64,000 nt of DNA from Candidatus Cloacimonadales bacterium (GTDB taxonomy: Bacteria > Cloacimonadota > Cloacimonadia > Cloacimonadales > JAFGVF01): NCBI GenBank assembly GCA_963663475.2, contig CAXXJV010000001.1:1344001-1408000 (forward strand). Reading direction: 5' to 3'. Position numbers and translations under genes: made by a program. A model generated the notes under the pieces. That model made no database searches, was not told the DNA's origin, and worked only from the letters and a program-made list of their open reading frames with translations. Below are positions 1 through 18,801 of this stretch, piece by piece; the stretch's first letter is position 1; each line of letters begins with the position of its first letter.

Positions 1-320
1 AAATATTAAGAAGGTCTCTAGTTAATAATCAAATAATACAAATACCTAAAATTTGTAATGATTATAATACTCTTAATATATTAATTACACAAATCTTTCC
101 TAAAGTACATATATATATATTATAGCATTTATATATCCTTAAAGAAAGACCAAGTCTATAACAATCACTTAGATTTGGTCACAAAAGACAAGTCAGATTA
201 CTAAGTGTTGAAAATATTCAACACAGCGTCTGTTTTGACACAGATTAAAAAAATAAAAAAAAGGATATTAAAATGAAAAAGATAATAATAATGATGTTAG
301 TCTTGATGACTGTTGGGATA
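1..320 (+). repeat. Partial copy 1 of the cassette leader + signal-peptide block
   Basis: Near-identical to 3100-3417 and ~8606-8929; starts before the window edge. Confidence 0.95.
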
Positions 321-611
321 ATGAGTGCAGCTGTAGTTAAAATTGGTGCAGATACGTACGTGAGAAATTTATCATTTAGACGTGCTGATTCAGGAACAGA
401 TTTTGAAGAAGGATTTACTGATTATTCCTTCCATATTAATGTATCATATAAATTGGGGCTACAAGAATTAAGATTTGAATACCTCGATGTTGATACAGGA
501 CAATGGCTTTTCTATTATGATTTCATAGGTGTTTATTCGTTGCAAACTGAACAATGGAGATACTATCAATTAATGACTGCTTATCCTCCAACGGATCCAA
601 TAAATCAATAA
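273..611 (+). CDS. Small secreted protein, cassette 1 (invariant signal peptide, Pro-rich C-terminus PPTDPINQ)
   Basis: AAGGA RBS; MKKIIIMMLVLMTVGI signal peptide shared with 3370 and 8882. Confidence 0.85.
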   Translation: MKKIIIMMLVLMTVGIMSAAVVKIGADTYVRNLSFRRADSGTDFEEGFTDYSFHINVSYKLGLQELRFEYLDVDTGQWLFYYDFIGVYSLQTEQWRYYQLMTAYPPTDPINQ

Positions 612-622
612 ATACAACATTA

Positions 623-647
623 ATATGGGCAGATTTTCTGCCCATAT
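623..647 (+). terminator. Intercistronic stem-loop between small and large gene
   Basis: ATATGGGCAGA-TTT-TCTGCCCATAT inverted repeat, no U-tract. Confidence 0.55.
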
Positions 648-660
648 AAAAGGAAAAATA

Positions 661-2940
661 ATGCGTATAAAATATGTTTTGCTAATTTGGATGTTATTAC
701 TATTAAGCTTATTATATTGCGATTTAGATCATCAACAAAGTGATATGTTGTATGATGGTTATAGGGTGCAATACTTAGGAAACAATGTTGTAAGGAGTTT
801 AAATAGAGTTTTATTGTTTGATAGTTATGGTATTACAGTTTATGAAACAATAGAAAATGACTTAGATGAAATTCTAACCTTAAATCTACCTAAGGTCAAA
901 CTGATTGATATGAACAGTAGCTATATAGCTTTAGTAATTTTTAGTGCAGAAGGAGGGCCTTATTATTCTCATAAGTTACTTGTTTATGATATTTCTCAGA
1001 TTAATCAACCTTATATAGTCTATGAAGAAGAATCAAACATATTAGAAGTATTTTTAACTAGTAACTATTTAATTTTAGATAAATATGATAGGGTTGAAGT
1101 TTATGATATAGAGACATTTGAAATAATTAATACCTATAATGATATATCTTTAAAGCAAAATATCCATGATTCAATATATTTTACTGTAAAGAATCAAAGT
1201 CAAAACATCTATTATTTATGTTATCTAGATGAAAATGGTCAACTGATCCAAGATTATAATCTGGGGCCTAACTTTGGTAAGGTAGCAATTAAAAATGAAC
1301 AACTTTTGTATTGCTATCAAGGATTTATTGATTTTTATAATATCACAGATTCTGATAGTCTCACATTTCAGAGGACCTTTGCATTATCACATTTTGCAGA
1401 GCTTGAACTCCCGGGACTATTAATATTTGATAATACAATGGTAGTCCCATGCTATTCTAATGATAATGAACTAATTTCTCAGTTAACCTATTATGATATT
1501 AGCGATATTGATAACATTAACGAACTAGGAAGTTATGAGTTTTTTCCTGAAATGGGGCAATACAAGGACATGAGAGTTTATGATACCATCCAATGGAATA
1601 ATAATTTCTTAATGGTCATAAAAGGTTTTGGTGTTATTTATTCAGACCATAATAACTTCTTGGATGATTATACAATATTAAAGTATAGTAGAGCACCAAT
1701 TATTAGTAAAAATATTAATACTAAACTATATGTCAACTATAATAATATTCTTGGTTTTAATAATATTTTTGATATAAGTTCACTGAGTAATATTACTCAG
1801 ATAGAAAATTCAGATTCTTTAGGAACCCTGCATTGGTTTGAAGCAGAAGATAATCAATATGTTATTAATAATAACTTTAGGGATAGGACTTTCTTATTAT
1901 ATAGTTTTAATGATGATAGTCTCAACTATATTACTACTTTCGAACTTCCTCAAGAACTAAATAATTGGCAACAACAAATCTCTCTAAATCTATGGAATGG
2001 GCATGATTTAATATTTTCTTTTGGTGAAAGTATTTATTGGTATGGTTATGAAGATGGGATATTCTCGTTAATTAACCAAGATGAAGTTGCTGAAATTGAT
2101 TTAAGTATTAGGTGGTTTTATTACAACAATTACTTCTATAAAATATCTTATCAAGGTCTGCTTGAAGTTTATGTTATACAGAATAATTCATTGGATTTAG
2201 TTAACACAATTTACTGGTCTGATAATAATGGTCCATCTGGTTTCGTTAACCAGTGGGGAATAGAGGACGGGCTACTAACAATCGCTAATATTAATCCAAA
2301 TGGAGTATCAAAAATATATGATCTCAATGTTGATCCACTTAACTTAACAGCTGAAATTGATTTGGATTACTATCTTATGAATAGCAGGGTTAAAAGATAT
2401 GGGGATTATTACTTCTTTACTGGTTGTGATAATGAAAACTATACACCTTATCAGTTTTATGAACAACTTTCATACTTCAATATATATAAGAAAGTTGGTG
2501 ATGAGTTTATAAGAGTTGGTGATATTTATAATCATCGTCAAACATGGGATTTCGAAATAGTATTTCAAGGTCCAGATGATTTTACTGTCTTTCTCTGCTC
2601 AACTCGTGGTATTGATGTATACTCCTGTCAAGCTACCCCCAACGGTAACCTAGATATCACACCTGTAATCTTAAATTCTTCTAACTATCCTAACCCCTTT
2701 AATCCCGAAACGACTATCTCTTATAACATCCCTAAGAAAGGTAATGTTACAGTCGATATTTATAACATTAAAGGACAGAAGGTCAAGTCCTTACTTAATG
2801 AAGAGCAAGAAGCAGGTAAACACTCCATCATTTGGAAGGGGAATAATGATAAGGGGCAGAAAGTTAGTTCAGGAACATATCTTTATAGGGTAAAAAGTGG
2901 AGATGAGGAAATTGTTAATAAAATGATGCTGGTGAAGTGA
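661..2940 (+). CDS. Large secreted beta-rich (propeller-like) protein with C-terminal FlgD-Ig / T9SS-type sorting domain
   Basis: Signal peptide from ATG 661 after AAGGAAA; C-terminal NYPNPFNPETTISY...SSGTYLYRV...KMMLVK; YDIS-type repeats. Confidence 0.9.
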   Translation: MRIKYVLLIWMLLLLSLLYCDLDHQQSDMLYDGYRVQYLGNNVVRSLNRVLLFDSYGITVYETIENDLDEILTLNLPKVKLIDMNSSYIALVIFSAEGGPYYSHKLLVYDISQINQPYIVYEEESNILEVFLTSNYLILDKYDRVEVYDIETFEIINTYNDISLKQNIHDSIYFTVKNQSQNIYYLCYLDENGQLIQDYNLGPNFGKVAIKNEQLLYCYQGFIDFYNITDSDSLTFQRTFALSHFAELELPGLLIFDNTMVVPCYSNDNELISQLTYYDISDIDNINELGSYEFFPEMGQYKDMRVYDTIQWNNNFLMVIKGFGVIYSDHNNFLDDYTILKYSRAPIISKNINTKLYVNYNNILGFNNIFDISSLSNITQIENSDSLGTLHWFEAEDNQYVINNNFRDRTFLLYSFNDDSLNYITTFELPQELNNWQQQISLNLWNGHDLIFSFGESIYWYGYEDGIFSLINQDEVAEIDLSIRWFYYNNYFYKISYQGLLEVYVIQNNSLDLVNTIYWSDNNGPSGFVNQWGIEDGLLTIANINPNGVSKIYDLNVDPLNLTAEIDLDYYLMNSRVKRYGDYYFFTGCDNENYTPYQFYEQLSYFNIYKKVGDEFIRVGDIYNHRQTWDFEIVFQGPDDFTVFLCSTRGIDVYSCQATPNGNLDITPVILNSSNYPNPFNPETTISYNIPKKGNVTVDIYNIKGQKVKSLLNEEQEAGKHSIIWKGNNDKGQKVSSGTYLYRVKSGDEEIVNKMMLVK

Positions 2941-3033
2941 TTTGATGTGAAACAAGAGATAAATAATTAATCATAATTCAATAATAATAAAAGCTCATAG
3001 AATAATCAATATTTATAAAAATGAATAAAAATA

Positions 3034-3061
3034 TTGACAAAATAATTATTGAAAGTATAGT
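3034..3061 (+). promoter_or_regulatory. Sigma70-like promoter of cassette 2 (copy at 8540-8567)
   Basis: TTGACA-16-TATAGT. Confidence 0.55.
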
Positions 3062-3095
3062 TTGTAATATAAAATAAAAAAGGAAAGCAAATATA

Positions 3096-3239
3096 ATGAA
3101 AATATTAAGAAGGTCTCTAGTTAATAATCAAATAATACAAATACGTAAAATATGTAATGATTATAATACTCTTAATATATTAATTACACAAATCTTTCCT
3201 AAAGTACATATATATATTAGAGCATTTAAGTATCTTTAA
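3096..3239 (+). CDS. Putative 47-aa leader peptide (uORF) spanning the (AT)n tract
   Basis: AAGGAA RBS, ATG, open for 47 codons in very AT-rich DNA; paralog 8602-8730 (42 aa). Confidence 0.35.
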   Translation: MKILRRSLVNNQIIQIRKICNDYNTLNILITQIFPKVHIYIRAFKYL

Positions 3240-3369
3240 AGAAAGACCAAGTCTATAACAATCACTTAGATTTGGTCACAAAAGACAAGTCAGATTACTA
3301 AGTGTTGAAAATATTCAACACAGCGTCTGTTTTGACACAGATTAAAAAAATAAAAAAAAGGATATTAAA

Positions 3370-3732
3370 ATGAAAAAGATAATAATAATAATGTTAGTCT
3401 TGATGACTGTTGGGATAGTTTGTGCTTATGATGCAGTTGCCGTAGCAGAAAACAATACTGGTAGGGTAATTACAGTAGGTATTGCTTTCATGGGTACTAA
3501 TAATTATCAGCAAGTTACAACTACAAGCGGTGCTGCGAATCTTCTAGGTTGGACGGGTTTACCTTATGATATTATTGCAGTTATTGGTACAAATATAAAT
3601 ATTAGAATACCTGGATACTATCAAGTTAAACAAGTTACATTAGAACATGGCTCTTCTCCTAATAATAAAGTGATATTTGATTTTTCACATCTTGATCCTG
3701 TAAAACCTGGAGATCCAGGACAAAATCAGTAA
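3370..3732 (+). CDS. Small secreted protein, cassette 2 (C-terminus DPVKPGDPGQNQ)
   Basis: Shared signal peptide and RBS; followed by GCCCCCAAG/CTTGGGGGC hairpin at 3742-3769. Confidence 0.85.
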   Translation: MKKIIIIMLVLMTVGIVCAYDAVAVAENNTGRVITVGIAFMGTNNYQQVTTTSGAANLLGWTGLPYDIIAVIGTNINIRIPGYYQVKQVTLEHGSSPNNKVIFDFSHLDPVKPGDPGQNQ

Positions 3733-3781
3733 ATAATTATCGCCCCCAAGCTAAGTAAAACTTGGGGGCAAAGGATAAAAT

Positions 3782-6025
3782 ATGAAACTCTTACATTTAT
3801 ATATTTTGCTTCTGTCTTTATCATCTTTATCTTGTCTTGACTTAGATTTATCTAGTTTTACTGAATTTGGAGAGACTACAGGAACAGACTTTGGTTGCAA
3901 TTTCTATCATATAAAAGATGATTATTTATTGAGTGGAACTACAAAGGGTTTTTCTATATATCAATCCGAGGAAGATGGAAGCCTCACATTAATTGATACT
4001 TTAAATACAGAAAAATTTAACGCTCTGACTTGTAATGAGAATTATCTTGCAATAAGCAAATCGCTAATGCCAAATATTGATATCTATAATATTAGTGATA
4101 TGGAAAATATTTATTATTCTCACACTATACAGACTAATTTTAATTTGCAAGGAATTAAATTACTTAGTAATAATCACTTGTTAGTTAACAAACTTAATGA
4201 TCATTCTATGCTTCTTGATATAACTAATGGAAATGAAATAATCAGTTATCCCCAATATTTATTTCGAACAGAATCTATAATTGAAGATGAAGAGATGCTA
4301 GCTTATGATTTATCATCTATGACATTGGAATGGGTTTCTCTTAATGATCAAAATCAAATTGTGCTGTTAAAATCTGAAAATAGAACCATTGATTATGCGT
4401 CTAGTAGTTCAGATTTAATCTTCCTTGCAGTAGATAATTACATAAAAATGTATAATGATATTTATGAAGAGGTCGCTCTCGATTCTATTTCAGTAAACTG
4501 GTATGATATATCTTTCGCTTATCGAGGTATAGAAATATTTGATTCGAATTTGCTTTTTATAGATGCTGATTTTAATCCCATTTCGCAGATGGATGAACCA
4601 GTTCTTAATGTTTATGAACTTACCGATGATAATTTACTGTACATGGCTCAAGAATTTTTTTTAGAGAACTGGGATAATAGGGGTTATTTTTTAACCCAGA
4701 AAGTTATTTCATGTAATGATAAGATTTACGTTAATGCAGAGGTAGAAGGAATTAAAGGATATCAAATATATGATAATCAAGTTGTACTGATTAGTCAATA
4801 TGGAGAAATAGCTTACTGGGAAAACTCATTCTTATGTAAGGATAATAAGATATATTTAAATGCGAGAAACAAAAATAGAGAATGTATTATTTATGAGTTT
4901 AGTACTCCAGAAAATCTCATACAAATTGAACATGATTTGCCATATGGTCAATATAATACTTTTCCTTATCAATCAGATTATATATATAAGAAGTCATATT
5001 TAAATAATGAAATTGAATTTTACCATTTCAATATAGATGATAGTGAAACTCTCATAGGATCTATTCCTGTAGAATATAATTATTTATATTTTAATTTCAT
5101 TCCATTGATGATAAACAGTGACTACATTGTTTATCAATTTCTCAATGATATTTATATTGGTCATTTTGATAATGGAATATTTTTCGAAAATCATACTTTT
5201 AATTTAGGCTCAAGCAATACTCAACGGGAGTTCACAGCTTTCATGAGAAATGGGTATTTATACAGTTTGGCTACACATACAAATCAAATTCAGATCTTTG
5301 ATATTGATGAGAATAATCATGAACTAATTGCAACTGATACTTCTCACTATTTCAATATAAATCAAGCCTTACCTATTATACAATTAAACGAAAAGTATAT
5401 TTGTTTTAGAGGTAGAGGGAATTATAACTATCTTATTGAGCTATCTCCTGATGAGATCAATATTATAGACATTTATCGACTAGATATTGATGATATTGCT
5501 TTCAACAATATAGGTGAATACTTCTTTATGGTGTATTCTTCTAGTAGTACACTTGAGATTAAAGAATTTGATCACTTTGATGAGCCTCATTTCCATTTGA
5601 TTGATACTATTAATTTCTCCTCAAATATACAATCTATAGATTTAATACATCAGAATGAGAATATTTATAATATGATAGTAACAACTATGGGCTCTATCTT
5701 TTACTTCCAATGTGCAATAACCCCCAACGGTAACTTAGATATCACACCTGTAATCTTAAATTCTTCTAACTATCCTAACCCCTTTAATCCCGAAACGACT
5801 ATCTCTTATAACATACCTAAGAAAGGTAATGTTACCGTCGATATTTATAACATTAAAGGACAGAAGGTCAAGTCTTTACTTAAAGAAGAGCAAGACGCAG
5901 GTAAACACTCCATCATTTGGAAGGGGAATAATGATAAGGGGCAGAAAGTTAGTTCAGGAACATATCTTTATAGGGTAAAAAGTGGAGATGAGGAAATTGT
6001 TAATAAAATGATGTTGGTGAAATAG
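3782..6025 (+). CDS. Large secreted protein with FlgD-Ig / T9SS-type C-terminal domain
   Basis: Signal peptide; same near-identical CTD. Confidence 0.9.
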   Translation: MKLLHLYILLLSLSSLSCLDLDLSSFTEFGETTGTDFGCNFYHIKDDYLLSGTTKGFSIYQSEEDGSLTLIDTLNTEKFNALTCNENYLAISKSLMPNIDIYNISDMENIYYSHTIQTNFNLQGIKLLSNNHLLVNKLNDHSMLLDITNGNEIISYPQYLFRTESIIEDEEMLAYDLSSMTLEWVSLNDQNQIVLLKSENRTIDYASSSSDLIFLAVDNYIKMYNDIYEEVALDSISVNWYDISFAYRGIEIFDSNLLFIDADFNPISQMDEPVLNVYELTDDNLLYMAQEFFLENWDNRGYFLTQKVISCNDKIYVNAEVEGIKGYQIYDNQVVLISQYGEIAYWENSFLCKDNKIYLNARNKNRECIIYEFSTPENLIQIEHDLPYGQYNTFPYQSDYIYKKSYLNNEIEFYHFNIDDSETLIGSIPVEYNYLYFNFIPLMINSDYIVYQFLNDIYIGHFDNGIFFENHTFNLGSSNTQREFTAFMRNGYLYSLATHTNQIQIFDIDENNHELIATDTSHYFNINQALPIIQLNEKYICFRGRGNYNYLIELSPDEINIIDIYRLDIDDIAFNNIGEYFFMVYSSSSTLEIKEFDHFDEPHFHLIDTINFSSNIQSIDLIHQNENIYNMIVTTMGSIFYFQCAITPNGNLDITPVILNSSNYPNPFNPETTISYNIPKKGNVTVDIYNIKGQKVKSLLKEEQDAGKHSIIWKGNNDKGQKVSSGTYLYRVKSGDEEIVNKMMLVK

Positions 6026-6211
6026 TGACTTTCTGGATAAGAGTGAGAGAAAAACAAACTTGTCTTTAATATGAAATAGTAATTATTGGATTTCTGTAAA
6101 TATACAAGTATAAATGGTTATTTTTCATAAAGTCCAAGATTGTGCTAGCAATACAAAAAAATGAAGTGAGATTAGGAGATAAAGCTCCTATTCTTTAAAA
6201 AAGGAGTAATT

Positions 6212-8446
6212 ATGAAAAAAGATATACTGATAATAATCACTTTATTATTTACTTTGAATCTCTTTTGTGAGTTAGATTATCAATTAGAATCAGAGTTTGC
6301 TTTTGGTGGTATTGAGTATTTGAAATATTCGAATGGAAAGATAATGTCACGCAATGCCTATGGATATGCAATTTATGAGATTCAAGATAGCGGCAATTTA
6401 GAAACTATAAGTAATGTTAGATTTTCTCCATGGGCTAATCATTATTATTCATATGATAAATTAGGGGTATATAGTGGTTATTTTACTTTTGGTAGGCAAG
6501 AGGATTTAGGGTCTTATTTCACTATCTACGATACATCTATCCCTAACCAACAAACTATTCTTTATCATACTCAGATAAATATTGAAAATATGTTTTCAGC
6601 AGAACTGTTTGAGAATTACTTTATCCGAAAAACAGGGAATCACAGCTACACGGTCTTTGATTATAATACTTTTCAACCAGTTAGTTACGTAGATAACATA
6701 TCATTATTATATGATACAAAGGTCAATGATGAGGGAGCGGTACTTCATGATTATAGTGATAACTGTTACTACTATTATGTAATAGATGATACAGGAAATC
6801 TTCACAGGAAGTATAATTTAGGTTCAGAAGAGAGAAAAGTTGCTATTTCAGGAGACAGGTTAATCACTTACTCTATGGGTGATATTAAACTCTATAACAT
6901 AACAGAAAGTGATTCTTTAGAATATACAGGGTCTACTTTTTATAATAATAACCCCTTATTATCAGTTGCTTTTGCTGATAACAAAGTTATATTTACCTCT
7001 GAAGAAGGATTTAATCCAAAAGTATTAATGCTGGAAATGTATGAAATTGATGTTGAAAATAATTTTAATCTAATAGACTCTGAACAAATCTATAATAATC
7101 CAAATTCAAATCATATGCCTGAAAGTTCACTTGTAATACTCAATAACACATTATACATCAGTGTGATTGATAGAAAGTTTACGCAAGCCAATATCTCAAA
7201 TAACAGTATGGAAATATTAGATGTTAATTATATTGGAAAAGGTAGATCATCCTCCTATGGATTTGTTAAAAATAATATATTTTATACAATGTGTTTTGAA
7301 GAATTTACAAGTTTGGATAGTTATTCTCTAGAAAACCATTCTAATGTGCAAGAAATAGATAATAACTTCCCTGAAAAAAGTGCTTATTGGTATTTTCCAG
7401 AAAATGAGAAAATTGTTAGATTTGATGAAGAGGAAGCTTGTTTTTATTTTTATGATTGGATTAATGATGAGTTGATTCTTAAAGATTCTTATAATCTACA
7501 GGGTTTTGTAGATAATACTTTCCTCTCCACCTACAAATGGGATGGTAACCAGTTTATCTACCGGATTGATTCTTCTTTAATATCTGTAAAAAAAGAGAAT
7601 GGTAACTTTGTGGAAACGTGGATTTTAGATGATGGTTTATTATGCAATTATGAAGTTTATCAAAATTATATTTATCAACTTAAGTCTAATCAAGGGATTA
7701 AAGTTTATTCATTTGATGAGTCTGGATATCAGCTTGTTAACACTTCTACACTTCCTTTTGTTAGCAATTTTCCTGCTATATTCATCAAGGGGAACATATT
7801 AACAACTAACAGAAAAAATATAGTAGATTTATCAGTTGATCCAGAAGGGCTTTCTATGAGTTATGATTTGAATCAATTTACTATCAACTCTAGTGCATTA
7901 AAATATTACGACTATTTAATGTATTGTGGTAAAGAACTTATCGAGACTTCTGAAGGAGAAAATGTTCTCGATAATGTTTTATCAATTTATAAACTAATTA
8001 ATGATGTACCTATCAGGGTGGGTGCAATAGAATCAGACTACATGATTCAAGATTTTCAAATTTTAGATAATGGTTCGGAAGAGAGTTTTGATATTCTCTT
8101 GTCTCATAATAATTTCTTTTCCATCTACTCCTGTCAAGCTACCCCAAACGGTAACCTAGATATCACACCTGTAATCTTAAATTCTTCTAACTATCCTAAC
8201 CCTTTTAATCCCGAAACGACTATCTCTTATAACATACCTAAGAAAGGTAATGTTACAGTCGATATTTATAACATTAAAGGACAGAAGGTCAAGTCCTTAC
8301 TTAAAGAAGAGCAAGAAGCAGGTAAACACTCCATCATTTGGAAGGGGAATAATGATAAGGGACAGAAAGTTAGTTCAGGAACATATCTTTATAGGGTAAA
8401 AAGTGGAGATGAGGAAATTGTTAATAAAATGATGCTGGTGAAGTGA
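6212..8446 (+). CDS. Large secreted protein with FlgD-Ig / T9SS-type C-terminal domain (no small partner gene)
   Basis: AAGGAG RBS; signal peptide; CTD; full-length paralog of 9310-11562. Confidence 0.9.
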   Translation: MKKDILIIITLLFTLNLFCELDYQLESEFAFGGIEYLKYSNGKIMSRNAYGYAIYEIQDSGNLETISNVRFSPWANHYYSYDKLGVYSGYFTFGRQEDLGSYFTIYDTSIPNQQTILYHTQINIENMFSAELFENYFIRKTGNHSYTVFDYNTFQPVSYVDNISLLYDTKVNDEGAVLHDYSDNCYYYYVIDDTGNLHRKYNLGSEERKVAISGDRLITYSMGDIKLYNITESDSLEYTGSTFYNNNPLLSVAFADNKVIFTSEEGFNPKVLMLEMYEIDVENNFNLIDSEQIYNNPNSNHMPESSLVILNNTLYISVIDRKFTQANISNNSMEILDVNYIGKGRSSSYGFVKNNIFYTMCFEEFTSLDSYSLENHSNVQEIDNNFPEKSAYWYFPENEKIVRFDEEEACFYFYDWINDELILKDSYNLQGFVDNTFLSTYKWDGNQFIYRIDSSLISVKKENGNFVETWILDDGLLCNYEVYQNYIYQLKSNQGIKVYSFDESGYQLVNTSTLPFVSNFPAIFIKGNILTTNRKNIVDLSVDPEGLSMSYDLNQFTINSSALKYYDYLMYCGKELIETSEGENVLDNVLSIYKLINDVPIRVGAIESDYMIQDFQILDNGSEESFDILLSHNNFFSIYSCQATPNGNLDITPVILNSSNYPNPFNPETTISYNIPKKGNVTVDIYNIKGQKVKSLLKEEQEAGKHSIIWKGNNDKGQKVSSGTYLYRVKSGDEEIVNKMMLVK

Positions 8447-8929
8447 TTTGATGTGAAACAAGAGATAAATAATTAATCATAATTCAATAATAATAAAAGC
8501 TCATAGAATAATCAATATTTATAAAAATAAATAAAAAGATTGACAAAATAATTATTGAAAGTATAGATTGTAATATAAATTATAAAAGGAAAGCAAATAT
8601 AATGAAAATATTAAGAAGGTCTCTAGTTAATAATCAAATAATACAAATACCTAAAATTTGTAATGATTATAATACTCTTAATATATTAATTACACAAATC
8701 TTTCCTAAAGTACATATATATATATATTAGAGCATTTAAGTATCCTTAAAGAAAGACCAAGTCTATAACAATCACTTAGATTTGGTCACAAAAGACAAGT
8801 CAGATTACTAAGTGTTGAAAATATTCAACACAGCGTCTGTTTTGATACAGATTAAAAAAATAATAAATAAAGGAAACTATAATGAAAAAGATAATAATAA
8901 TGATGTTAGTCTTGATGACTGTTGGGATT
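8126..8929 (+). repeat. ~800-bp conserved block, copy 3
   Basis: Near-identical to 2620-3417. Confidence 0.95.
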
Positions 8930-9260
8930 TTAAGTGCTGGTACAATACAAATTTATTACTGATATGAAATTTTTTGAGAATGATATCACTCTTTATCGTA
9001 AAAATCTTGATTTAGGACCACATGAGCCTTATCGGCAAGAAGATATATCCAACAAATATAATAGTGAAACCAGAGAAATATATAACCTTGTTGAGGGGAA
9101 TAACCTTTATTGGGTTGTAATAGTAGGTGATCCTTTGCTTAACCTAGGTCCATGTGAAATTAATGTATCAGGTATTGACTTTAGAACCGGAAGTTATAAA
9201 ATAATAGAAAAAATGTTTTTCCATTTTCCTGTTGATCCAGGTACACCCATAACACAATAA
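8882..9260 (+). pseudogene. Small secreted protein, cassette 3, frameshifted near 8950 (or sequencing error)
   Basis: Signal peptide from ATG 8882 reads ...GTIQIYY-stop; body continues in +1 frame to FPVDPGTPITQ; hairpin 9270-9294 follows. Confidence 0.8.
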
Positions 9261-9309
9261 AATAACTACAGGGAGAGAAGTCTTTTCTCTCCCTATAAAG
9301 AGGTTAAAA

Positions 9310-11562
9310 ATGAAGAGATATATATTTTTATTCATGATATTAGTACTATTCCTTGGCGCTTCAGCAGAACTTGACTACAACTTATTATCTGAATTTGGTT
9401 TTGGTGGAGTTGCAAACGTGATGTACTCAAATAACAAAATTCTATGTGGGAATTCTTATGGATATATTATTTATGATATACAAGAAGATGGAACTCTGGA
9501 TAGTATTAGCAATGTTAGAGATAATTTTGAATGGATAGGGCAATATTCCTTTGAAAAAGTAATTGAATATAGTGGGGCTTTGTATTCTGATGACCCTATA
9601 AATTTTCCTAATTATTTTTCAATATATGATACGTCAGCACCTAACGAATTTTCTTTAATACATCAAACGCAAATTGATAGTGATAACATGCTATCAGCAG
9701 AAATGTTCGAACACTTTTTCATAAGGAAAACAGGCAATAATCAGTATACGATTTATGACCTTGAAAATTTTAGTACTATGAGTCAAGTTAATAATATTTC
9801 CTTACTCCCATCTACAAAATTTAAAGACTTAGGAGCAGTCCTGTTGGATTTATCTGATAACTGTTACTATTATTACGAGATTGATGACTTTGGTACTCTC
9901 CAAAAGAAATATAATATAGGTGCAGAAGAAAGAAAGATAGCAATAGATGGAGATAAGATGATCACTTATACTATAGGAGATATTAATTTCTACAATATCA
10001 CAGTCTCCGATGAATTAGAATTGATAGGTTCATTTTTTCTTCCAGAACCGATAAATGAAGGAAGCCAAATAGCTTATAAAGATGATATGGTTGCCTTTTC
10101 AATTGCCGAAGGAGTATATCCTAGAACATCAAGACTCTACCTATATGATGTTTCTCATGTTAGTTCAACCAACTCCATAGAGTTTCTTGATTGTGTTAAT
10201 TTGTCAAACAGACCTTATTCTCAATTCTGTTCAGCTGCTTCACTTGTACAAAGTGATAATGACTTTTATGTTTACACTTATGATTATTTACTGCACGCTT
10301 CTATAAGTAATGGGAATATATTTCTTGATGATGAGGGAACTCTTGCAACTGGTAGCCTTTCAACACAAGGAATAATTAAAAATAATCATCTATATACTCA
10401 ACATACATACAGAGACAACCATCTTAAAATATTTTCTCTTAGTGATTTGACAAATGTGCAAGAGATTAATCATGATTACCCGGATGCCAGTTTATATAGG
10501 TTCTTAGAAGAAAATGAAAAAGTAGTAAGATATGATGAACTGACTGGTGCTGTCTACCTGTATGATTTTAGTACAGATGAGATGATTTTGGAAGCTACTT
10601 ATGCCCCACAGCCTCCTTTCCCTCAAGATTGGTTTGAAGCACTTAAATGGGATGGGAACCATTTTATCTATCAATCCTTAGGCTCTATCTATTCTCTTGT
10701 TTATACAGATGGAGAGTTTACCCAAACGTGGTCTATTTCAAATTCTGATAATTATTTTTATAATTATAGTTATGGTATATATGAAAACTACTTATATGAA
10801 TATGAAAAAGGATTGGGAGTTGTTGTTTATGAATTTACACAAGATGGTATCAATCAGATAAATTACCTAACTATACCTTTTAATAGTGGGCAGGAAGCCT
10901 ATATAAAAGGTGATATTGTGAATATTGATAACAAAATTGTTGATCTTTCTGTTGATCCAATAAACCTTTCTCAGAGATATAATCTTAATCAGAATTTAAT
11001 ATTTGGTTACCCTAAAATATACAATGATTACTTGTTTTATTGTGGGAGAGAGAATGTGTATGATAATGGGACATTAGTTGCTATAGATGAGGGACTCTTT
11101 ATGTATAAGTTTGTAGATGATGCACTATCTAAGGTCGGAGTAATAGTAACAGGTAACTATATATCTAATGCCCAGGTTATCCCAGGGAGAACAGAGGATA
11201 GTTTTAATCTATTAGTATCTGAAAGCGGTCATTTCTCCATCTACTCCTGCCAAGCTACCCCCAACGGTAACCTAGATATCACACCTGTAATCTTTAATTC
11301 TTCTAACTATCCTAACCCCTTTAATCCCGAAACGACTATCTCTTATAACATCCCTAAGAAAGGTAATGTTACCGTCGATATTTATAACATTAAAGGACAG
11401 AAGGTCAAGTCTTTACTTAAAGAAGAGCAAGACGCAGGTAAACACTCCATCATTTGGAAGGGGAATAATGATAAGGGGCAGAAAGTTAGTTCAGGAACAT
11501 ATCTTTATAGGGTAAAAAGTGGAGATGAGGAAATTGTTAATAAAATGATGCTGGTGAAATAG
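9310..11562 (+). CDS. Large secreted protein with FlgD-Ig / T9SS-type C-terminal domain
   Basis: GAGG RBS; signal peptide; CTD. Confidence 0.9.
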   Translation: MKRYIFLFMILVLFLGASAELDYNLLSEFGFGGVANVMYSNNKILCGNSYGYIIYDIQEDGTLDSISNVRDNFEWIGQYSFEKVIEYSGALYSDDPINFPNYFSIYDTSAPNEFSLIHQTQIDSDNMLSAEMFEHFFIRKTGNNQYTIYDLENFSTMSQVNNISLLPSTKFKDLGAVLLDLSDNCYYYYEIDDFGTLQKKYNIGAEERKIAIDGDKMITYTIGDINFYNITVSDELELIGSFFLPEPINEGSQIAYKDDMVAFSIAEGVYPRTSRLYLYDVSHVSSTNSIEFLDCVNLSNRPYSQFCSAASLVQSDNDFYVYTYDYLLHASISNGNIFLDDEGTLATGSLSTQGIIKNNHLYTQHTYRDNHLKIFSLSDLTNVQEINHDYPDASLYRFLEENEKVVRYDELTGAVYLYDFSTDEMILEATYAPQPPFPQDWFEALKWDGNHFIYQSLGSIYSLVYTDGEFTQTWSISNSDNYFYNYSYGIYENYLYEYEKGLGVVVYEFTQDGINQINYLTIPFNSGQEAYIKGDIVNIDNKIVDLSVDPINLSQRYNLNQNLIFGYPKIYNDYLFYCGRENVYDNGTLVAIDEGLFMYKFVDDALSKVGVIVTGNYISNAQVIPGRTEDSFNLLVSESGHFSIYSCQATPNGNLDITPVIFNSSNYPNPFNPETTISYNIPKKGNVTVDIYNIKGQKVKSLLKEEQDAGKHSIIWKGNNDKGQKVSSGTYLYRVKSGDEEIVNKMMLVK

Positions 11563-11696
11563 GAGCATAGGTCAGGCAAGATCTACTGCATTATATGGGA
11601 TTATAGTCAGCTTTTAAAAGTAAGTCTAAGGAAAACTGTTGACATATTTCTACACTTTTTAAAATTCAACTAAAGATATATTTTGAGAGGATAATT

Positions 11697-13082
11697 GTGG
11701 CACATAGAGTCTTAATAGTTGAAGATAATAAATATTTATCAGCCCAGTATAAGATGGTATTAGAGAGACACGGCTATGAAATAAAAATAGTGTTCGATAG
11801 TGATGAACTGTTTGAAGAATATCCGACTTTTAATCCAGAAGTTATTGTAGTTAACATGATGCTTACCTACAGTGCATTAAATGGTATTCAGATTACCAGA
11901 GCTTTAGTATATGACTATAAAACGCAGGCCAAGTTAATTGCAATTTCTGCAGAAGCAAGTGCTTTAGAGCTTAAAGAAATTCGTAAGTTAGGTGTCTTTA
12001 CTTTTATTGAAAAAGGAGAGAATTTTAATCTTAATTATCTAATTGTTAATATTGAAAATGCTATCAAGTATTCTAAAAATGAAGATGAAAACAAGAATCT
12101 AATTCATCATAATAAAAATCTTAAGAAACAGATTCTTAGCAAAAATCCATTCTTAGGCCTCTGCAAGAAAGTTAGAAGTCTTAAAGAGGATGTTATCAAT
12201 GCAACTATAAAAGAACAATCCTTGCTAATATATGGTGCTCCAGGAACAGGAAGACACAACTTAGTTAATTACTATTATAACAATTCCACCCGTTTTGGAA
12301 TGCCTTTTCTACAGGTTAACTGCCGTCAGTTATCTAATGAAATTGATTATCAATTACGCCACAGTCATCTTGAGAAAAGTGAATTAATAAGTCGGAGATT
12401 AGCTGAACTGATAGAAGAGAATGAATCAGGGATAATTCATTTTGATGAACTAGCAAATTTAAGTAATGGTATTCAGTTATTGCTAGTTAAGTATATTGAA
12501 CAAGCTGAAGAATCAACTACTATCCCCATTTTTCTCTTCACAACATCATATACTTTGGGAAGACTTAAGGCTAGAAGAAGAATTAATAGTAAATTACGCG
12601 ATATTATGAAAGATAAATTTTTAACTATCCCTTCACTAAAGAGCAGGGGTAACGATCTAATTATTCTTTTTAAATACTTTATGGAAACTATGTGTGAGCA
12701 ATATTTCTTAGAATGTGCTATTGATTATGAAGAAATAAGTGGAATTCTTAAATCTTATAAGTGGCCAGGTAATGTAGTTGAATTAAAGAATTTCTGTAAA
12801 AATATTGCTTTAAAATATAAAAATGTTGATAATAAAGCTATCATCTCTTCTTTCAGGAAACTAACTATCAATAAAGATTGTAATGACTGCGGATTAGATC
12901 TCTATGATATGGATAATTTTAAAGAAGCTGTAATTACTTTTGAAAAGAATTATTTAACCCAGAAACTAAATCAACACAAGTGGAAAATGAGTGAAGTGTC
13001 AAGATCTATAAATATTGAAAGATCAACACTTTATAAGAAAATTAGCCAATTAAATATTGAAAGAGAAGATAACATTGACTAA
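11697..13082 (+). CDS. NtrC-like regulator (REC - degenerate AAA+ - Fis-type HTH)
   Basis: VLIVED receiver start; GAPGTGR; FDE; WPGNVVEL; RSTLYKK HTH. Confidence 0.85.
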   Translation: MAHRVLIVEDNKYLSAQYKMVLERHGYEIKIVFDSDELFEEYPTFNPEVIVVNMMLTYSALNGIQITRALVYDYKTQAKLIAISAEASALELKEIRKLGVFTFIEKGENFNLNYLIVNIENAIKYSKNEDENKNLIHHNKNLKKQILSKNPFLGLCKKVRSLKEDVINATIKEQSLLIYGAPGTGRHNLVNYYYNNSTRFGMPFLQVNCRQLSNEIDYQLRHSHLEKSELISRRLAELIEENESGIIHFDELANLSNGIQLLLVKYIEQAEESTTIPIFLFTTSYTLGRLKARRRINSKLRDIMKDKFLTIPSLKSRGNDLIILFKYFMETMCEQYFLECAIDYEEISGILKSYKWPGNVVELKNFCKNIALKYKNVDNKAIISSFRKLTINKDCNDCGLDLYDMDNFKEAVITFEKNYLTQKLNQHKWKMSEVSRSINIERSTLYKKISQLNIEREDNID

Positions 13083-14118: not shown

Positions 14119-17100
14119 TTAGTATATATCCAATACCTTAATAAGTGTCTTTGTTCCTATAATATATAATACTTCTTCCTTTTTAGCATTCATTATTGTT
14201 TTTGCTAAAGGACTATCAAAACTAATCTTAATAATACTATCATGAATACTTGTTTCAGATATTTTTCTAACAATCCGATATTCAAATATTTGTTGGTTAT
14301 CTAAATAGAGTATTCTAAAACGTTTACTCAACAGAACATTAGTTTGTTTGGTCAACTGTATATAGTCTTCCTCTATTTGATTTATGCTCTCTTCAAGCGG
14401 AGTAATCGCTTGATCTTGGTCCATATAAAACTCATAATCCTTAATCTGAATATATATCCATCCACACCTTCTAAGAACTCTTGCTTGTTTGACATTTTTC
14501 ACAATTATGTCTTTCTGCTGAACTTCTGATAAATGATAGTCTTGGCTAGTCAAATCAAAACAATCAATAGCGATTTTACTACCTCCAGATGTAACAGCAA
14601 CTAAATCAATTATGTATTTATCTTTTACTACAGAATATTTTGGTATGGCAGGAATAGAATTCTGTACAAGTAAGTTATAAACTTCAGTTTCAAACCAAGA
14701 TGAAAATGGTAAAGGACTTGCTCCAGTTCCATAATTTATTACAGGATCTTTTCTTGTATGATTTTTACTTTGATAATTCATTATATGATGTAATATTAAA
14801 TATCTTTGATCTTCTTGATTAAGCAAGTCTTTTAACTCTACTGAATGGAAAATCCATAGTTGCTCTTTTGCTCGAGAACCAGCAACATTAAATCTTCTTT
14901 TATCTTGGTTTTTAGTTAAAGCACTTCGCCTATGATTTGGGGCTGTTACTAAACTTAACATTATTACATCTCTTTCATCACCTTGGAAAGATGCTGAGTT
15001 GCCACATACAATCTTTCTATTAATAATTTCGTCTTCAGGAATGAATTGGAGTAGCAACTGCTCAATTTTCTCTGCTTGGCTAGTTCCTTGTAAGACAATT
15101 ACTCCAAAAGTTTTTTTCTGGTATTCATCTAACTTTATTAAACTAGCTATTTTATTTACAATAGCTTGTGCTTCTACATCATTGTGGATATTGGTTTTAT
15201 CTCCTTCCACAAAAGCGTTAGGACAATAATGGCTTTCTAAGGGACTTAATCTTTTCTCAGAAAACTGCTTGAGAGGGTATAGGGTTTGATCGTCAGGTCT
15301 ATAATAATTACTATTACTAAACTCAATAATTTCTGGCATACACCTAAAATGTTCTCTTAATGAAACACTAGCAGGACAGTATATTTTACCAATATCAAAA
15401 AGACTGTTGCCTATGTTGAAATTTTCTCTATGCAAATCATTAGCAAGTAATCTATTAAGATCTTCATCCATTGAGTTAGTATTAACTCCAACATATTCTG
15501 GAGATGTTTGCTTATCATCACCAACTATAACAATTTTTTTAGCAATATAAAAGAGAAATAGTGCTTCTGGTCCTAATTGGCTAGCTTCATCAATAATAAT
15601 AATATCAAACATATTATGATGTGGGTTAATTGTCTCAGCAACTTTATAAAGTGGCATTATCCAGCATGGTACTACTTCTTTACACTTTTCCATTTTCTCT
15701 CTGGCAATAGAACTATATCTTTTATAGCTCTGGCTTTTAGGTGATTTGCCCATTTTCTCTATAGATGCTACCCAATCTTTGATAGAAATACTTAACTCTC
15801 TATCATTGCGTAGTTTATTAATGATATTAGCCCATGACTTCTGATTAATCAAGGACTTTGTAATATCTTTCTTTCTAATTTCTGCTCTCTTAATATCCTC
15901 TTTAAGCCTGTTATTTTGCACATTATTGTCTGCAATTAAATCAGCTAACTTAACTTGCGCTTCTGTTAATATAAATGCTTTAGATAATTGCTTAATATGA
16001 TTTATTGTGATATTCTCAGAAAAAATATCATCGATAAGATGGGGAAGATATTCTCTCAATGCATCTGCTTCTTGCAAGAATGCTTGATATTCCTCTTGTA
16101 GTAAAGCTAGTTGCCTAAGTTTCTTCAATGAAGTATCATATAATTGGATATCATTAGTTCTAAGAGAATCAATCAAGTCTTGTTTAACTATATGCAATTG
16201 GTTAGCAGACAAATACTCGATTGCTGAATCAGTTTTCTCGTTAATTCTCTGCAACTTATTTGCTAAAGAGAGATAATTAATATCTTTCATGAAAGAATTA
16301 ATATCTTCAGTATTAAGTTGCAAACTCGGCACTCCATTAGTCTTATAGATTTCAAACAAGAGTCTTTTTATCTCGGTGAAACTATTTTTTATTTCAATGG
16401 TTTTTTCTAAGTGATTTTTTAGAAATTGGATTTTATAAGCAATATTTAAATTTTCTATATTGCTGGGATTTATTCCCCAAATCTTTAAGATATTACTAAT
16501 TGAAATTTTAATTGATAAGTATTTCTTAAAAACCACTAAATCATTACTGTATGTACAGGGGCGATTATTAATGTTAAAGGAATCAATAGTTTTTAAAACA
16601 CTCTTGATATATTTTGGAAAGAAAGGTCTTTGTAACTTAAAAAATAAACTTCTTAGATTAGTATCTTGCTTAAAATATTCTAAAAGAATACTTGCATTTG
16701 CTTCAATTCTCTCATTATTGAAGATTTTTAACTCTTGAATAGATTTCTTCTCTTTCTGGAAATAATTTTGATTAGTTTGGATATCTTCTAGGATATCTTT
16801 GGTATTTCTAATCCTCTCTTCAAGTTGGTTTAAACTGTTGCTGTTAAAAAAGTTTAATATTTCTTCTTTATAATCAAAGTTTATACTAGTGTAGACTTGG
16901 AAGGACTTCTGTAGAGAGCAAGCAAGGTTATATAAATTCTCGATTTTTTCAGACTCAACTGTCCAACTAATCTCATAATTCTCATAATCATTTTTTAACT
17001 GATTTTTAATACTATGATATTTCTTAAGTTCTTCAAGGGGTATGATTAAAGACTCATTAGGAAGCTCATCTAAAAGATCATCTTGAGGGAGAATAATAAA

Positions 17101-18801
17101 TTCTTGATTTTTATTAAAGAAAACCTTAGTTCTCTTTAAGATATTTTGCTTATCATTATTATCATAATCATGGTAAGTGTCTTTATACCAGCTAAAGATT
17201 TGTCTTTCATCCCTTATTCTTTTAGCTATTTCAGAAATCTTACCTCTATATTGAAAATTCAAATTTTGATCTAAGTAGATTATTCTTTGTAGATCATAGT
17301 AGTCTTCATAAGATTTCTCAAGTAATTCTTGGTTACTTTCTAAGACTTTTTCATTTTTTTTAATTTGTTTTTTCAAAGAACTCAAATTTTCTTTTTCAGT
17401 TTTATCTATTATCAGATTTATACTTTTGGTTAAATCTGCCTTTGATTGGGTATCGTTATTTAAATAAGAGACTGTTAATTCTCTAATCTCTTCTGGAATT
17501 TTATCTTTAAGTACTTCCAGTGCTCTCTGAGTATAAGCTGTTACTAGTATTTTTTTGTTAGTCGCTAAATAATGAGATATAAGGTTAGAGATTGTATGAG
17601 ACTTACCTGTACCTGGAGGACCTTTTACTAAGACTGCTTGGTGGTCTTTGATTTTATATAAAATATTTTCTTGCTCATCATTATAATCTTTGGGGAAATA
17701 AATAGGATCAACACTGTATTCTTCTTCAGGAGAAGGTTCTTTGCGAGAATTTTTAGAAGTTAAGATATTAAAATTTTCTGGAGTTTGAGCACATAAGTCA
17801 ACTTGATCAATTATTTTTTGGTATAGATTTATCAGGTTACGAGTATTATTTCTTCTGAAGATGATAGCTGGGCTGTAAGTTAATAAAGGGAGGTGATTAT
17901 CTTCTCTCTTACTTTTACTTGTAATAGATTGAAATAATCCGTCAGGGTGTAGTTGCGAGATGAATTCTCCCAATTTATTTTCTTCTAATGTAGTTAAATC
18001 ATTGATGTATTCTTCATCTTGTTGAGGTTGAAAAAAAGTAGTTAACTTATTTGAAACTTCTGAAAGCTTATGAGAATCAAACAAGTCACTATAATGTCTG
18101 ATGAAGTCTGTTTCTACTTGGGGCAGCTCCTCATTATTTACCTGAATTATAATTTCTGAATGATTATTTATAAAGCTATGGGATATGTTTATCTGCTGGG
18201 TTAAGATATGTCTGTAAATTTGAACTTGAGGATTTCTAAAATTAAATAAGCCAATTGCCAAAATTAATTGATATTCCTCTGGAAATTTTTCTCTTTTGTT
18301 GGCTATCGTGAATAACTTACGGTATATTTGCTGACTTCTTGTGTAAATTTCATGTTTAGTTTTATAGTTTGCTAAAGCTACTTCATATTTCTCTTTTTCT
18401 TCTTTAAAAGTAGTATCAATATATTTGGTATAGATGTCTAAGATATTGGGCATATTTTCTAGCGAAATTTCTTTGCCATTTTCCCTTATTGACCTATTTA
18501 AATCCACAGAAATACTAGTATCTGTTTCATGAATAATTGCCCACTTACTGAGTTCCGTTGAAGTAATAATGAAAGATGGTTTTATAGGTTCTTCAGGTTT
18601 TTTTATTTTTAATAAATAATCATGTTTATTATTATCTTGAGAAAAAATATGTGAAATGAACTTGTTATTAGGAATTTCAGAAAACCAGATAATTTCTTCA
18701 TATTGACTCTTATTAGATTCAATATCAGCTACAGGAATGTATCTAAGTTGGGAAAAGTTTTTTAAATATTCAAGGAAATCCAGTAGAGTTTTCTTATTCA
18801 T
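14119..18801 (-). CDS. Large SF1 (DNA2/NAM7-like) helicase with C-terminal Vsr/restriction-fold-like and GreA/GreB-C-like domains
   Basis: GPPGTGKS, DEASQ, VGDDKQ, LREHFRC, FQGDERD, RFNVAGSRAK; FSSWFETEV...IDL...IAIDC; ISFDSPLAKTIMNAK. Confidence 0.88.
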   Translation of the reverse strand: MNKKTLLDFLEYLKNFSQLRYIPVADIESNKSQYEEIIWFSEIPNNKFISHIFSQDNNKHDYLLKIKKPEEPIKPSFIITSTELSKWAIIHETDTSISVDLNRSIRENGKEISLENMPNILDIYTKYIDTTFKEEKEKYEVALANYKTKHEIYTRSQQIYRKLFTIANKREKFPEEYQLILAIGLFNFRNPQVQIYRHILTQQINISHSFINNHSEIIIQVNNEELPQVETDFIRHYSDLFDSHKLSEVSNKLTTFFQPQQDEEYINDLTTLEENKLGEFISQLHPDGLFQSITSKSKREDNHLPLLTYSPAIIFRRNNTRNLINLYQKIIDQVDLCAQTPENFNILTSKNSRKEPSPEEEYSVDPIYFPKDYNDEQENILYKIKDHQAVLVKGPPGTGKSHTISNLISHYLATNKKILVTAYTQRALEVLKDKIPEEIRELTVSYLNNDTQSKADLTKSINLIIDKTEKENLSSLKKQIKKNEKVLESNQELLEKSYEDYYDLQRIIYLDQNLNFQYRGKISEIAKRIRDERQIFSWYKDTYHDYDNNDKQNILKRTKVFFNKNQEFIILPQDDLLDELPNESLIIPLEELKKYHSIKNQLKNDYENYEISWTVESEKIENLYNLACSLQKSFQVYTSINFDYKEEILNFFNSNSLNQLEERIRNTKDILEDIQTNQNYFQKEKKSIQELKIFNNERIEANASILLEYFKQDTNLRSLFFKLQRPFFPKYIKSVLKTIDSFNINNRPCTYSNDLVVFKKYLSIKISISNILKIWGINPSNIENLNIAYKIQFLKNHLEKTIEIKNSFTEIKRLLFEIYKTNGVPSLQLNTEDINSFMKDINYLSLANKLQRINEKTDSAIEYLSANQLHIVKQDLIDSLRTNDIQLYDTSLKKLRQLALLQEEYQAFLQEADALREYLPHLIDDIFSENITINHIKQLSKAFILTEAQVKLADLIADNNVQNNRLKEDIKRAEIRKKDITKSLINQKSWANIINKLRNDRELSISIKDWVASIEKMGKSPKSQSYKRYSSIAREKMEKCKEVVPCWIMPLYKVAETINPHHNMFDIIIIDEASQLGPEALFLFYIAKKIVIVGDDKQTSPEYVGVNTNSMDEDLNRLLANDLHRENFNIGNSLFDIGKIYCPASVSLREHFRCMPEIIEFSNSNYYRPDDQTLYPLKQFSEKRLSPLESHYCPNAFVEGDKTNIHNDVEAQAIVNKIASLIKLDEYQKKTFGVIVLQGTSQAEKIEQLLLQFIPEDEIINRKIVCGNSASFQGDERDVIMLSLVTAPNHRRSALTKNQDKRRFNVAGSRAKEQLWIFHSVELKDLLNQEDQRYLILHHIMNYQSKNHTRKDPVINYGTGASPLPFSSWFETEVYNLLVQNSIPAIPKYSVVKDKYIIDLVAVTSGGSKIAIDCFDLTSQDYHLSEVQQKDIIVKNVKQARVLRRCGWIYIQIKDYEFYMDQDQAITPLEESINQIEEDYIQLTKQTNVLLSKRFRILYLDNQQIFEYRIVRKISETSIHDSIIKISFDSPLAKTIMNAKKEEVLYIIGTKTLIKVLDIY

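Follow-up and report, generated by a model that had tools for sequence, protein, structure and literature searches.

A tandem array of secreted small-protein and predicted propeller genes in a Cloacimonadota bacterium, with leaders that may act as repeat-gated switches

What kind of device is a run of secreted-protein genes whose export-directing ends are almost identical and whose remaining parts differ widely? The question is raised by a 64,000-nt window (the whole stretch of DNA analyzed, C1:1344001-1408000) from the genome of a Cloacimonadota bacterium (G000; 3.3 Mb, two contigs), for which the nearest homologues carry the label Candidatus Cloacimonadales. The window begins with a plus-strand array in which genes for small (S) and large (B) secreted proteins stand in the order S1/B1, S2/B2, B3, S3/B4, followed by a sigma-54 response regulator and TsaD. 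The gene coordinates bear out the layout proposed in an initial annotation of this DNA, that is, three units of leader, small gene, hairpin, and large gene plus one large gene (B3) without its small gene. From the sequence evidence we consider it moderately probable that this is a phase-variable surface locus, its units being switched by repeat slippage and gained, lost, or homogenized by recombination through their shared ends.

The case for a switch lies in the leaders. Each unit has its own promoter; that of unit 2 (3034-3061) is sigma-70-like, matching 11 of 12 consensus positions, its -35 element is conserved across family leaders, and the -35 of unit 3 lies at 8540. A TA tract of 10–20 nt is present in all 16 family leaders, and in 15 of them a ribosome-binding site (RBS) precedes a frame of 33–37 codons that stays open as far as (TA)n, with a probability of being open in shuffled sequence of 0–0.065 each. 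Past the tract comes a sequence complementary to the RBS of the small gene some 125 nt away, an anti-Shine-Dalgarno (anti-SD) element whose pairing closes over three hairpins. Stop codons sit at fixed distances from the anti-SD core, at -16 in 14/15 leaders (-14 in unit 1) and, for another frame, at +3 in 14/15. From lineage to lineage the letters of the anti-SD and the SD change in concert, and cognate duplexes outperform non-cognate ones, being matched in 14 of 5040 permutations with seven lineages and in 2 of 120 with five. When the footprint of the ribosome was blocked in folding, an early stop left the RBS mostly paired (unpaired probability 0.01–0.43) and later stops usually opened it. 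Per-sequence folds were used for the leaders in place of RNAalifold, which recovered only hairpin 2 from the 16 leaders, hairpin 1 being out of register in the alignment.

The three units of the window differ in their predicted state. In unit 1 the leader frame (1-125; 42 aa, its ATG 4 nt before the window) passes through (TA)6 at 109-120 and stops at 123-125, which precedes the anti-SD element (133-140, predicted to pair with the S1 RBS at 261-268) and the three leader hairpins (148-180, 205-224, and 229-244), so that the unit is predicted to be off or borderline. The 47-aa frame of unit 2 (3096-3239) passes through (TA)5 at 3208-3217 and stops on the anti-SD (3230-3237), ahead of the hairpins and S2 RBS (3245-3365; RBS at 3358-3365), and this unit is predicted to be on. 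In unit 3 the frame (8602-8730; 42 aa) runs through (TA)7 at 8714-8727 to a stop before the anti-SD at 8740-8747 and is predicted to be off. Tracts measure 12, 10, and 14 nt in units 1–3 of G000 and 12–18 nt in G008, with flanks 95–97% identical, and among near-identical leaders their lengths differ by whole units. A pair of units in G005 (L038:3434-9255) encodes identical small proteins and bodies and has TA tracts of 10 and 25 nt. The leader was also considered as a c-di-GMP-I (cyclic di-GMP) riboswitch-like element, a candidate rejected by Rfam, which gave six weak matches over positions 1-12000, none at gathering score; no plus-strand terminator-like site was found in 2900-3900.

Leaders of other families often carry a different repeat at the same place. 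Simple repeats occur in 24 of 41 other-family leaders vs 50 of 2073 genes of this genome (2.4%) and 50 of 1050 500-nt windows (4.8%), the repeats being (ATCT)6-11, C8-13, (TC)7, or T, G, or C runs in the promoter spacer. Fifteen of these 24 leaders have an RBS-preceded frame that runs across the repeat, two of them probably by chance, and in the ATCT leaders and two poly-C leaders from G022 one frame in three passes a likely anti-SD about 150 nt before the start. By eye, the leaders of families f8, f12, and f17 (L103-L156) show a recurring AAHAARTTCAY-like motif directly before a strong hairpin, some 130–190 nt upstream of the small gene. Two large tail genes of G000 outside the window are preceded by a tiny secreted protein of about 67 aa (G000:C1:1270381-1270584 and C1:2603400-2603651), each with an 11-nt TA run just upstream of its gene, and in several leaders of family f12 (L095, L099) a similar gene separates a poly-C tract from the small gene.

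The leader is also part of the DNA that the units share. The initial annotation spoke of near-identical blocks of about 800 bp at the junctions; two full copies exist, 96.9% identical, at 2620-3425 (B1 tail DNA, leader, and S2 signal peptide) and 8126-8928 (B3 tail DNA, leader, and S3 signal peptide), but the other junctions are partial, unit 1 having only the leader part of about 470 bp (92%) and the ends of B2 and B4 only the tail part of about 300 bp. This tail-coding DNA is 97.7–98.4% identical among the four large genes, and the leader block has three copies in the genome, all at this locus. The bodies of the large proteins are strongly diverged, as had been claimed, with 42% identity between B3 and B4, 25% between B1 and B3 or B4, and no significant full-length match of B2 to the others. 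The shared DNA is not just a homology arm, because it holds a promoter, the leader frame, the (TA)n tract, and conserved RNA helices.

Assembly collapse as the origin of these repeats was rejected. The check contigs came from four runs representing at most two samples of one study, probably including the source, and they covered all unique segments and showed 0 differences; in run X1 the repeat pieces had a depth of 150–238 and the unique segments one of 71–80, so that the array is not a collapse. No rearranged junctions were seen in the contigs of these four best-matching runs; the contigs break at the repeats, and hence do not confirm the order of the units. Cover is missing over S2/B2 in runs X9 and X13 and over B4 in X13; as no contig spans these gaps, this is not taken as evidence. 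S3 (8882-9260) is frameshifted just past its signal peptide, the frame stopping at 8960-8962; since the frameshift is present in the contigs of runs X1, X2, X3, and X4, which match without difference, it is real and not an artefact. Intact S3 orthologues exist.

Tails group by genome (identity 0.93 within genomes vs 0.66 between), and small proteins and propeller bodies group by type across genomes. B1 and B3 are 40% identical in body DNA and 98% in tail DNA; for B1 and its orthologue in G004 the corresponding values are 96% and 91%. Genome-wide in G000, tails at least 85% identical were found in 26 of 124 nearby pairs of tail genes and 2 of 8863 distant pairs, and because tail homogenization occurs at these other loci too, the sequence comparisons favor ordinary recombination, by unequal crossover or gene conversion, over a programmed swap. 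Examples of tails 94–100% identical on bodies 23–34% identical are found at G000:C1:1505736-1510787 and 2810595-2815851 and between 802309 and 1182418, one of these pairs lying 375 kb apart; further tandem tail-gene arrays (2498309-2514988 and 2593438-2612543 of the same contig) have bodies 73–95% identical and consist of three paralogues of 1670–1930 aa and five of about 816 aa.

The content and order of cassettes vary among relatives at this same locus, as the initial annotation had anticipated, G004 having one unit and G006 three large genes in another order. In G006 the small gene of the B3 orthologue is split by an insertion, and in contigs of runs X5 and X7, both from one sample, B3 is connected with a signal peptide by about 350 other bases; for these reasons the solo state of B3 is likely a recent loss, with the short hairpin at 6173-6190 as its remnant, where close strains have a full small gene and hairpin. 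The G006 insertion (L034:9250-11480) is about 1.8 kb long and holds a 445-aa open reading frame (ORF). Small proteins were said to form cognate pairs with the large ones, and they do co-vary with the bodies and not with the tails: over 20 pairs the Mantel rho was 0.54 for small protein vs body (p = 2e-4; p = 4e-4 with labels permuted within genomes) and 0.02 for small protein vs tail. Phylum-wide, in 79 pairs of which 53 had a scorable neighbor, the nearest neighbor of the small protein was among the top three neighbors of the body in 50/53 and of the tail in 19/53.

B1 (661-2940) has a signal peptide, a predicted tandem double beta-propeller, and a type IX secretion system (T9SS) type A/FlgD-Ig C-terminal domain, and B2 (3782-6025), the solo gene B3 (6212-8446), and B4 (9310-11562) belong to the same propeller family. 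All four tails exceed the cut-offs of PF18962 and TIGR04183, both features of T9SS type A cargo, the signal peptide and the type A C-terminal domain, being present, and no significant Pfam or NCBIfam domain was found in the large proteins besides tail-driven matches. The model of the B1 body (predicted local distance difference test, pLDDT, 89.6) is all-beta with tandem WD double propellers as its best structural matches, the search of PDB sequences giving weak WD40 matches only. LVIVD (PF08309), a repeat reported in cell-surface proteins in the accessible part of PMC2447325, was matched in 10 of 49 family members; the bodies of the window match no Pfam family. Conserved body columns are structural with no catalytic-type set, and no His, Cys, or Arg is conserved at 60% or more across 90 bodies. 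The large proteins are predicted double beta-propellers that end in a type IX secretion tail. Tail-bearing ORFs number 136 in the genome, SprA and PorU score above cut-off, and a T9SS has been suggested for Cloacimonadota (PMC11285876, accessible part); PMC8542988, as far as it is accessible, deals with other Cloacimonadota surface structures and not with this module. A fifth propeller-family gene of the genome, at G000:C1:334517-336718, has no small partner, and at the orthologous locus of G004 the propeller gene stands directly behind another large secreted gene.

The small proteins are predicted, on the strength of models, to be transthyretin-like beta-sandwiches with an acidic, proline-rich tail. 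For S1 (273-611) the model (pLDDT 89.4) consists of a small beta-sandwich and a disordered Pro/Asp tail, and its best fold matches include transthyretin-like domains, pilin CnaB domains, and type V pilins (Z 5–6.2; root-mean-square deviation 2.7–3.6); this is resemblance only, as a Z below 8 may reflect merely a common arrangement. Foldseek gave no significant match for S1, the Atlas no usable match for S1 or S2, and Pfam no meaningful match for the small partner family. The initial annotation held the mature small proteins to be unrelated, but relatives link S1 to S3 by a common N-terminal IxTD/ADT strand and DP..P tail, and 75 of 79 small proteins fall into one network at the loose threshold of E<0.05; S2 (3370-3732) does belong to a separate sequence group, with a tail of the same type as the others. 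Among 18 aligned small proteins one Asp is the sole invariant residue, and neither a conserved isopeptide Lys/Asn nor a sortase motif was seen; a lipobox-like pattern occurs in 2 of 68, none of them in the window. Each small gene is followed by a hairpin (623-647, 3742-3769, and 9270-9294). The S1 orthologue of G004 (L033:8434-8823) has lost its normal stop, and its frame continues through the hairpin into the beginning of the large gene. Complex prediction for S1 and B1 with its tail scored 0.07 and 0.01 against a mark of 0.32, run without controls, and is not evidence either way.

A search with a single protein found the family in 8 of 41 genomes, and a 49-sequence profile gave matches at E<=1e-8 in 206 of 232 genomes of the phylum, the weak ones including other propellers; surroundings were examined for part of the strong matches (60 regions and 20 loci). 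A search of representative sequences returned 818 proteins at E<=0.001, without genomic context, and a metagenome scan with B4 no relatives. Upstream signal-peptide genes with a Pro tail, that tail being a selection criterion of the count, precede 43 of 76 large genes outside the profile; 21 have none, a few of these by eye following broken or mis-started small genes, 6 stand behind a tandem large gene, and 6 lie at a contig end. When the Pro criterion is dropped, at least two Pro still stand in the last 14 aa of 48 of the 50 upstream ORFs for small secreted proteins, and a strong hairpin (z<-3) stands behind the small gene in 42 of 50. Such a partner was found for 0 of the 131 other tail-bearing genes of this genome, and pairs occur in 7 of 17 families (f1, f2, f8, f12, f13, f16, and f17). 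Other arrays include a row of six small genes, each with its large gene, in G008 and four units in G018. No description of this two-gene module was found in the literature searched, which left out most subscription papers and supplements.

Put together, these features suggest how the locus may work. Slippage would change the length of (TA)n and with it the place at which the leader frame stops, before or on the anti-SD. A ribosome stopping early would leave the RBS of the small gene paired (off), and one stopping on or beyond the anti-SD would free it (on); an untranslated small gene could also silence the large gene through Rho polarity, Rho being above cut-off in the genome, or through mRNA decay. 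Applied to G000, the scheme would put unit 2 in the on state, together with B3 downstream of it, and the other two units in the off state. Through the hairpin that follows it, the small gene may yield more protein than the large one. The small protein would serve its own propeller as cognate partner, whether as a potempin-like plug or as a chaperone, binding through its acidic proline tail and leaving the cell with the propeller, which would itself be a binding protein rather than an enzyme, displayed on the surface through the T9SS. The array would change by RecA-type recombination between its shared tail and leader DNA, as unequal crossover or gene conversion, and not by a programmed swap. 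A wider version, which we hold to be possible and somewhat doubtful, would make this an undescribed Cloacimonadota-wide surface-variation system in which each cassette is switched alone by a microsatellite-gated translational attenuator, the repeat units differing by family (TA, ATCT, poly-C, and promoter-spacer tracts), and in which a cognate complex or fibril of tag-less small protein and double propeller is exported through the T9SS, giving these free-living anaerobes combinatorial surface types.

Several observations weigh against this reading. The role of the small protein is its weakest step, because linkage by itself could produce the co-variation and because loss is more frequent among small genes than among large ones: S3, the partner of B3, the split gene of G006, and family f4, in which the partner is absent at 9 of 9 inspected loci, are repeated cases of a small gene lost or broken beside an intact large gene, and on this sequence record the small partner is not essential. 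In the folding, the RBS stays closed for G004 at +3 (0.07) and for two G005 leaders (about 0.3). Long-range pairing of the RBS is common in this AT-rich genome, exceeding 0.5 for 41% of the 150 genes taken as controls; only five of the seven lineages have the anti-SD window as the best partner of the RBS; no repeat is present in 17 of the 41 distant leaders; and the leaders are homologous, so that counts overstate their independence. As to export, PorV-like genes are below cut-off, and PorM/GldM gave no match in the genome with the query used.

Some of these points would suit ordinary tandem surface-protein paralogues, with gene-converted tails and leaders, neutral drift of the TA tracts, and a co-inherited periplasmic small protein that has no special tie to its neighbor. 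The homogenized tails of nearby genes, some with divergent bodies, the frequent loss of small genes, and the SD pairing of control genes all agree with this explanation, which we nevertheless regard as unlikely, as it does not sit well with stop codons fixed relative to the anti-SD, an open leader frame, anti-SD and SD letters that change together, different repeat units at the same leader position in other families, and a pair, tail, and hairpin kept across seven families. Rather less likely still is a switchable fibril, in which the small protein, made in excess, would be the main building block of a thin filament and the propeller, exported by the T9SS, would serve as its anchor or as an adhesin at its tip. 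The pilin-like folds among the top matches of S1, the strong hairpin behind the small gene, and a regulatory logic like that of the pil1 pilus would fit; against it stand the low Z scores, the want of conserved isopeptide residues, sortase motif, or lipobox, the lack of an obvious outer-membrane route, and the persistence of large genes without small ones.

The initial annotation had itself favored cassette swapping, with homology arms around a variable cognate pair; this would be a programmed system, with the shared blocks as dedicated homology arms and the pairs as ligand and receptor, in kin recognition for example. Content and order do vary among relatives and pairs do co-vary by type, yet we judge programmed swapping improbable: there is no design of silent cassettes and an expression site, because each unit has its own promoter, and its own predicted switch besides; rearranged junctions were not seen in the four best-matching runs; the flanking genes scanned are the sigma-54 response regulator and TsaD; and tails are homogenized elsewhere in the genome too. 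Downstream of tsaD, on the minus strand, lies a 1560-aa ORF (14119-18801), helicase-like by inspection, at a place occupied by different genes in G004 and G006; it is possibly a defence or mobile insertion.

We return to the reading as a phase-variable locus. The initial annotation recognized no named system of this layout, but the KLIKK peptidase/potempin loci of Tannerella forsythia come close. These are clusters of T9SS cargo genes with virtually identical C-terminal domains, each immediately preceded by a potempin ORF (98–132 aa mature); the potempin signal peptides are 65% alike and the mature parts 4–14%, and each potempin acts on its co-transcribed partner (accessible parts of PMC4404884 and PMC9890683). 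Here too a small ORF with a conserved signal peptide stands directly upstream of cargo genes with near-identical tails (97–100% over the last 80 aa) and bodies 20–43% identical. The cargo differs in being a predicted double propeller without a peptidase domain, and the small proteins, which are not lipoproteins, are predicted beta-sandwiches and not barrels; each unit also has a strong hairpin between its genes and a repeat-gated leader, and the module spans a phylum and not one species. In its control the locus resembles pil1 of Streptococcus gallolyticus, where GCAGA repeats in a leader-peptide gene shift the stop codon and the ribosome opens an RNA structure, a transcription terminator (PMC3894217, accessible part). 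Computation likewise places a variable simple repeat in a leader-peptide frame, with repeat number setting where the frame stops with respect to an RNA structure. That structure is predicted to be an anti-SD helix at the RBS and not a terminator, the repeat consists of TA units (ATCT or C units in other families), and each cassette in the array has a predicted switch to itself. T9SS type A cargo (PF18962/TIGR04183; PF13860) with LVIVD-like propellers shares the tail and signal peptide, and differs in that the bodies of the window match no Pfam family and the small partners have no meaningful Pfam counterpart. Sortase-type and type V pilins are set apart by the small proteins' want of LPxTG and isopeptide residues and the rarity of a lipobox. 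The locus works like KLIKK/potempin in layout and like pil1 in control and is a member of neither.

Repeat-driven phase variation has been studied almost wholly in host-adapted pathogens. A translational switch with its repeat in a leader, conserved with compensatory changes and varied repeats in a free-living phylum, would extend the pil1-type mechanism. The module also brings an undescribed family of small proteins and about 80 naturally occurring cognate pairs, with which it could be asked whether proteins lacking a tag exit the cell bound to T9SS cargo. Homogenization between tandem neighbors is a candidate explanation for the virtually identical tails of the KLIKK proteins, left without one in the accessible part of PMC4404884. 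If the phase-variable reading is true, the switch would give a free-living microbe a surface that varies from cell to cell.

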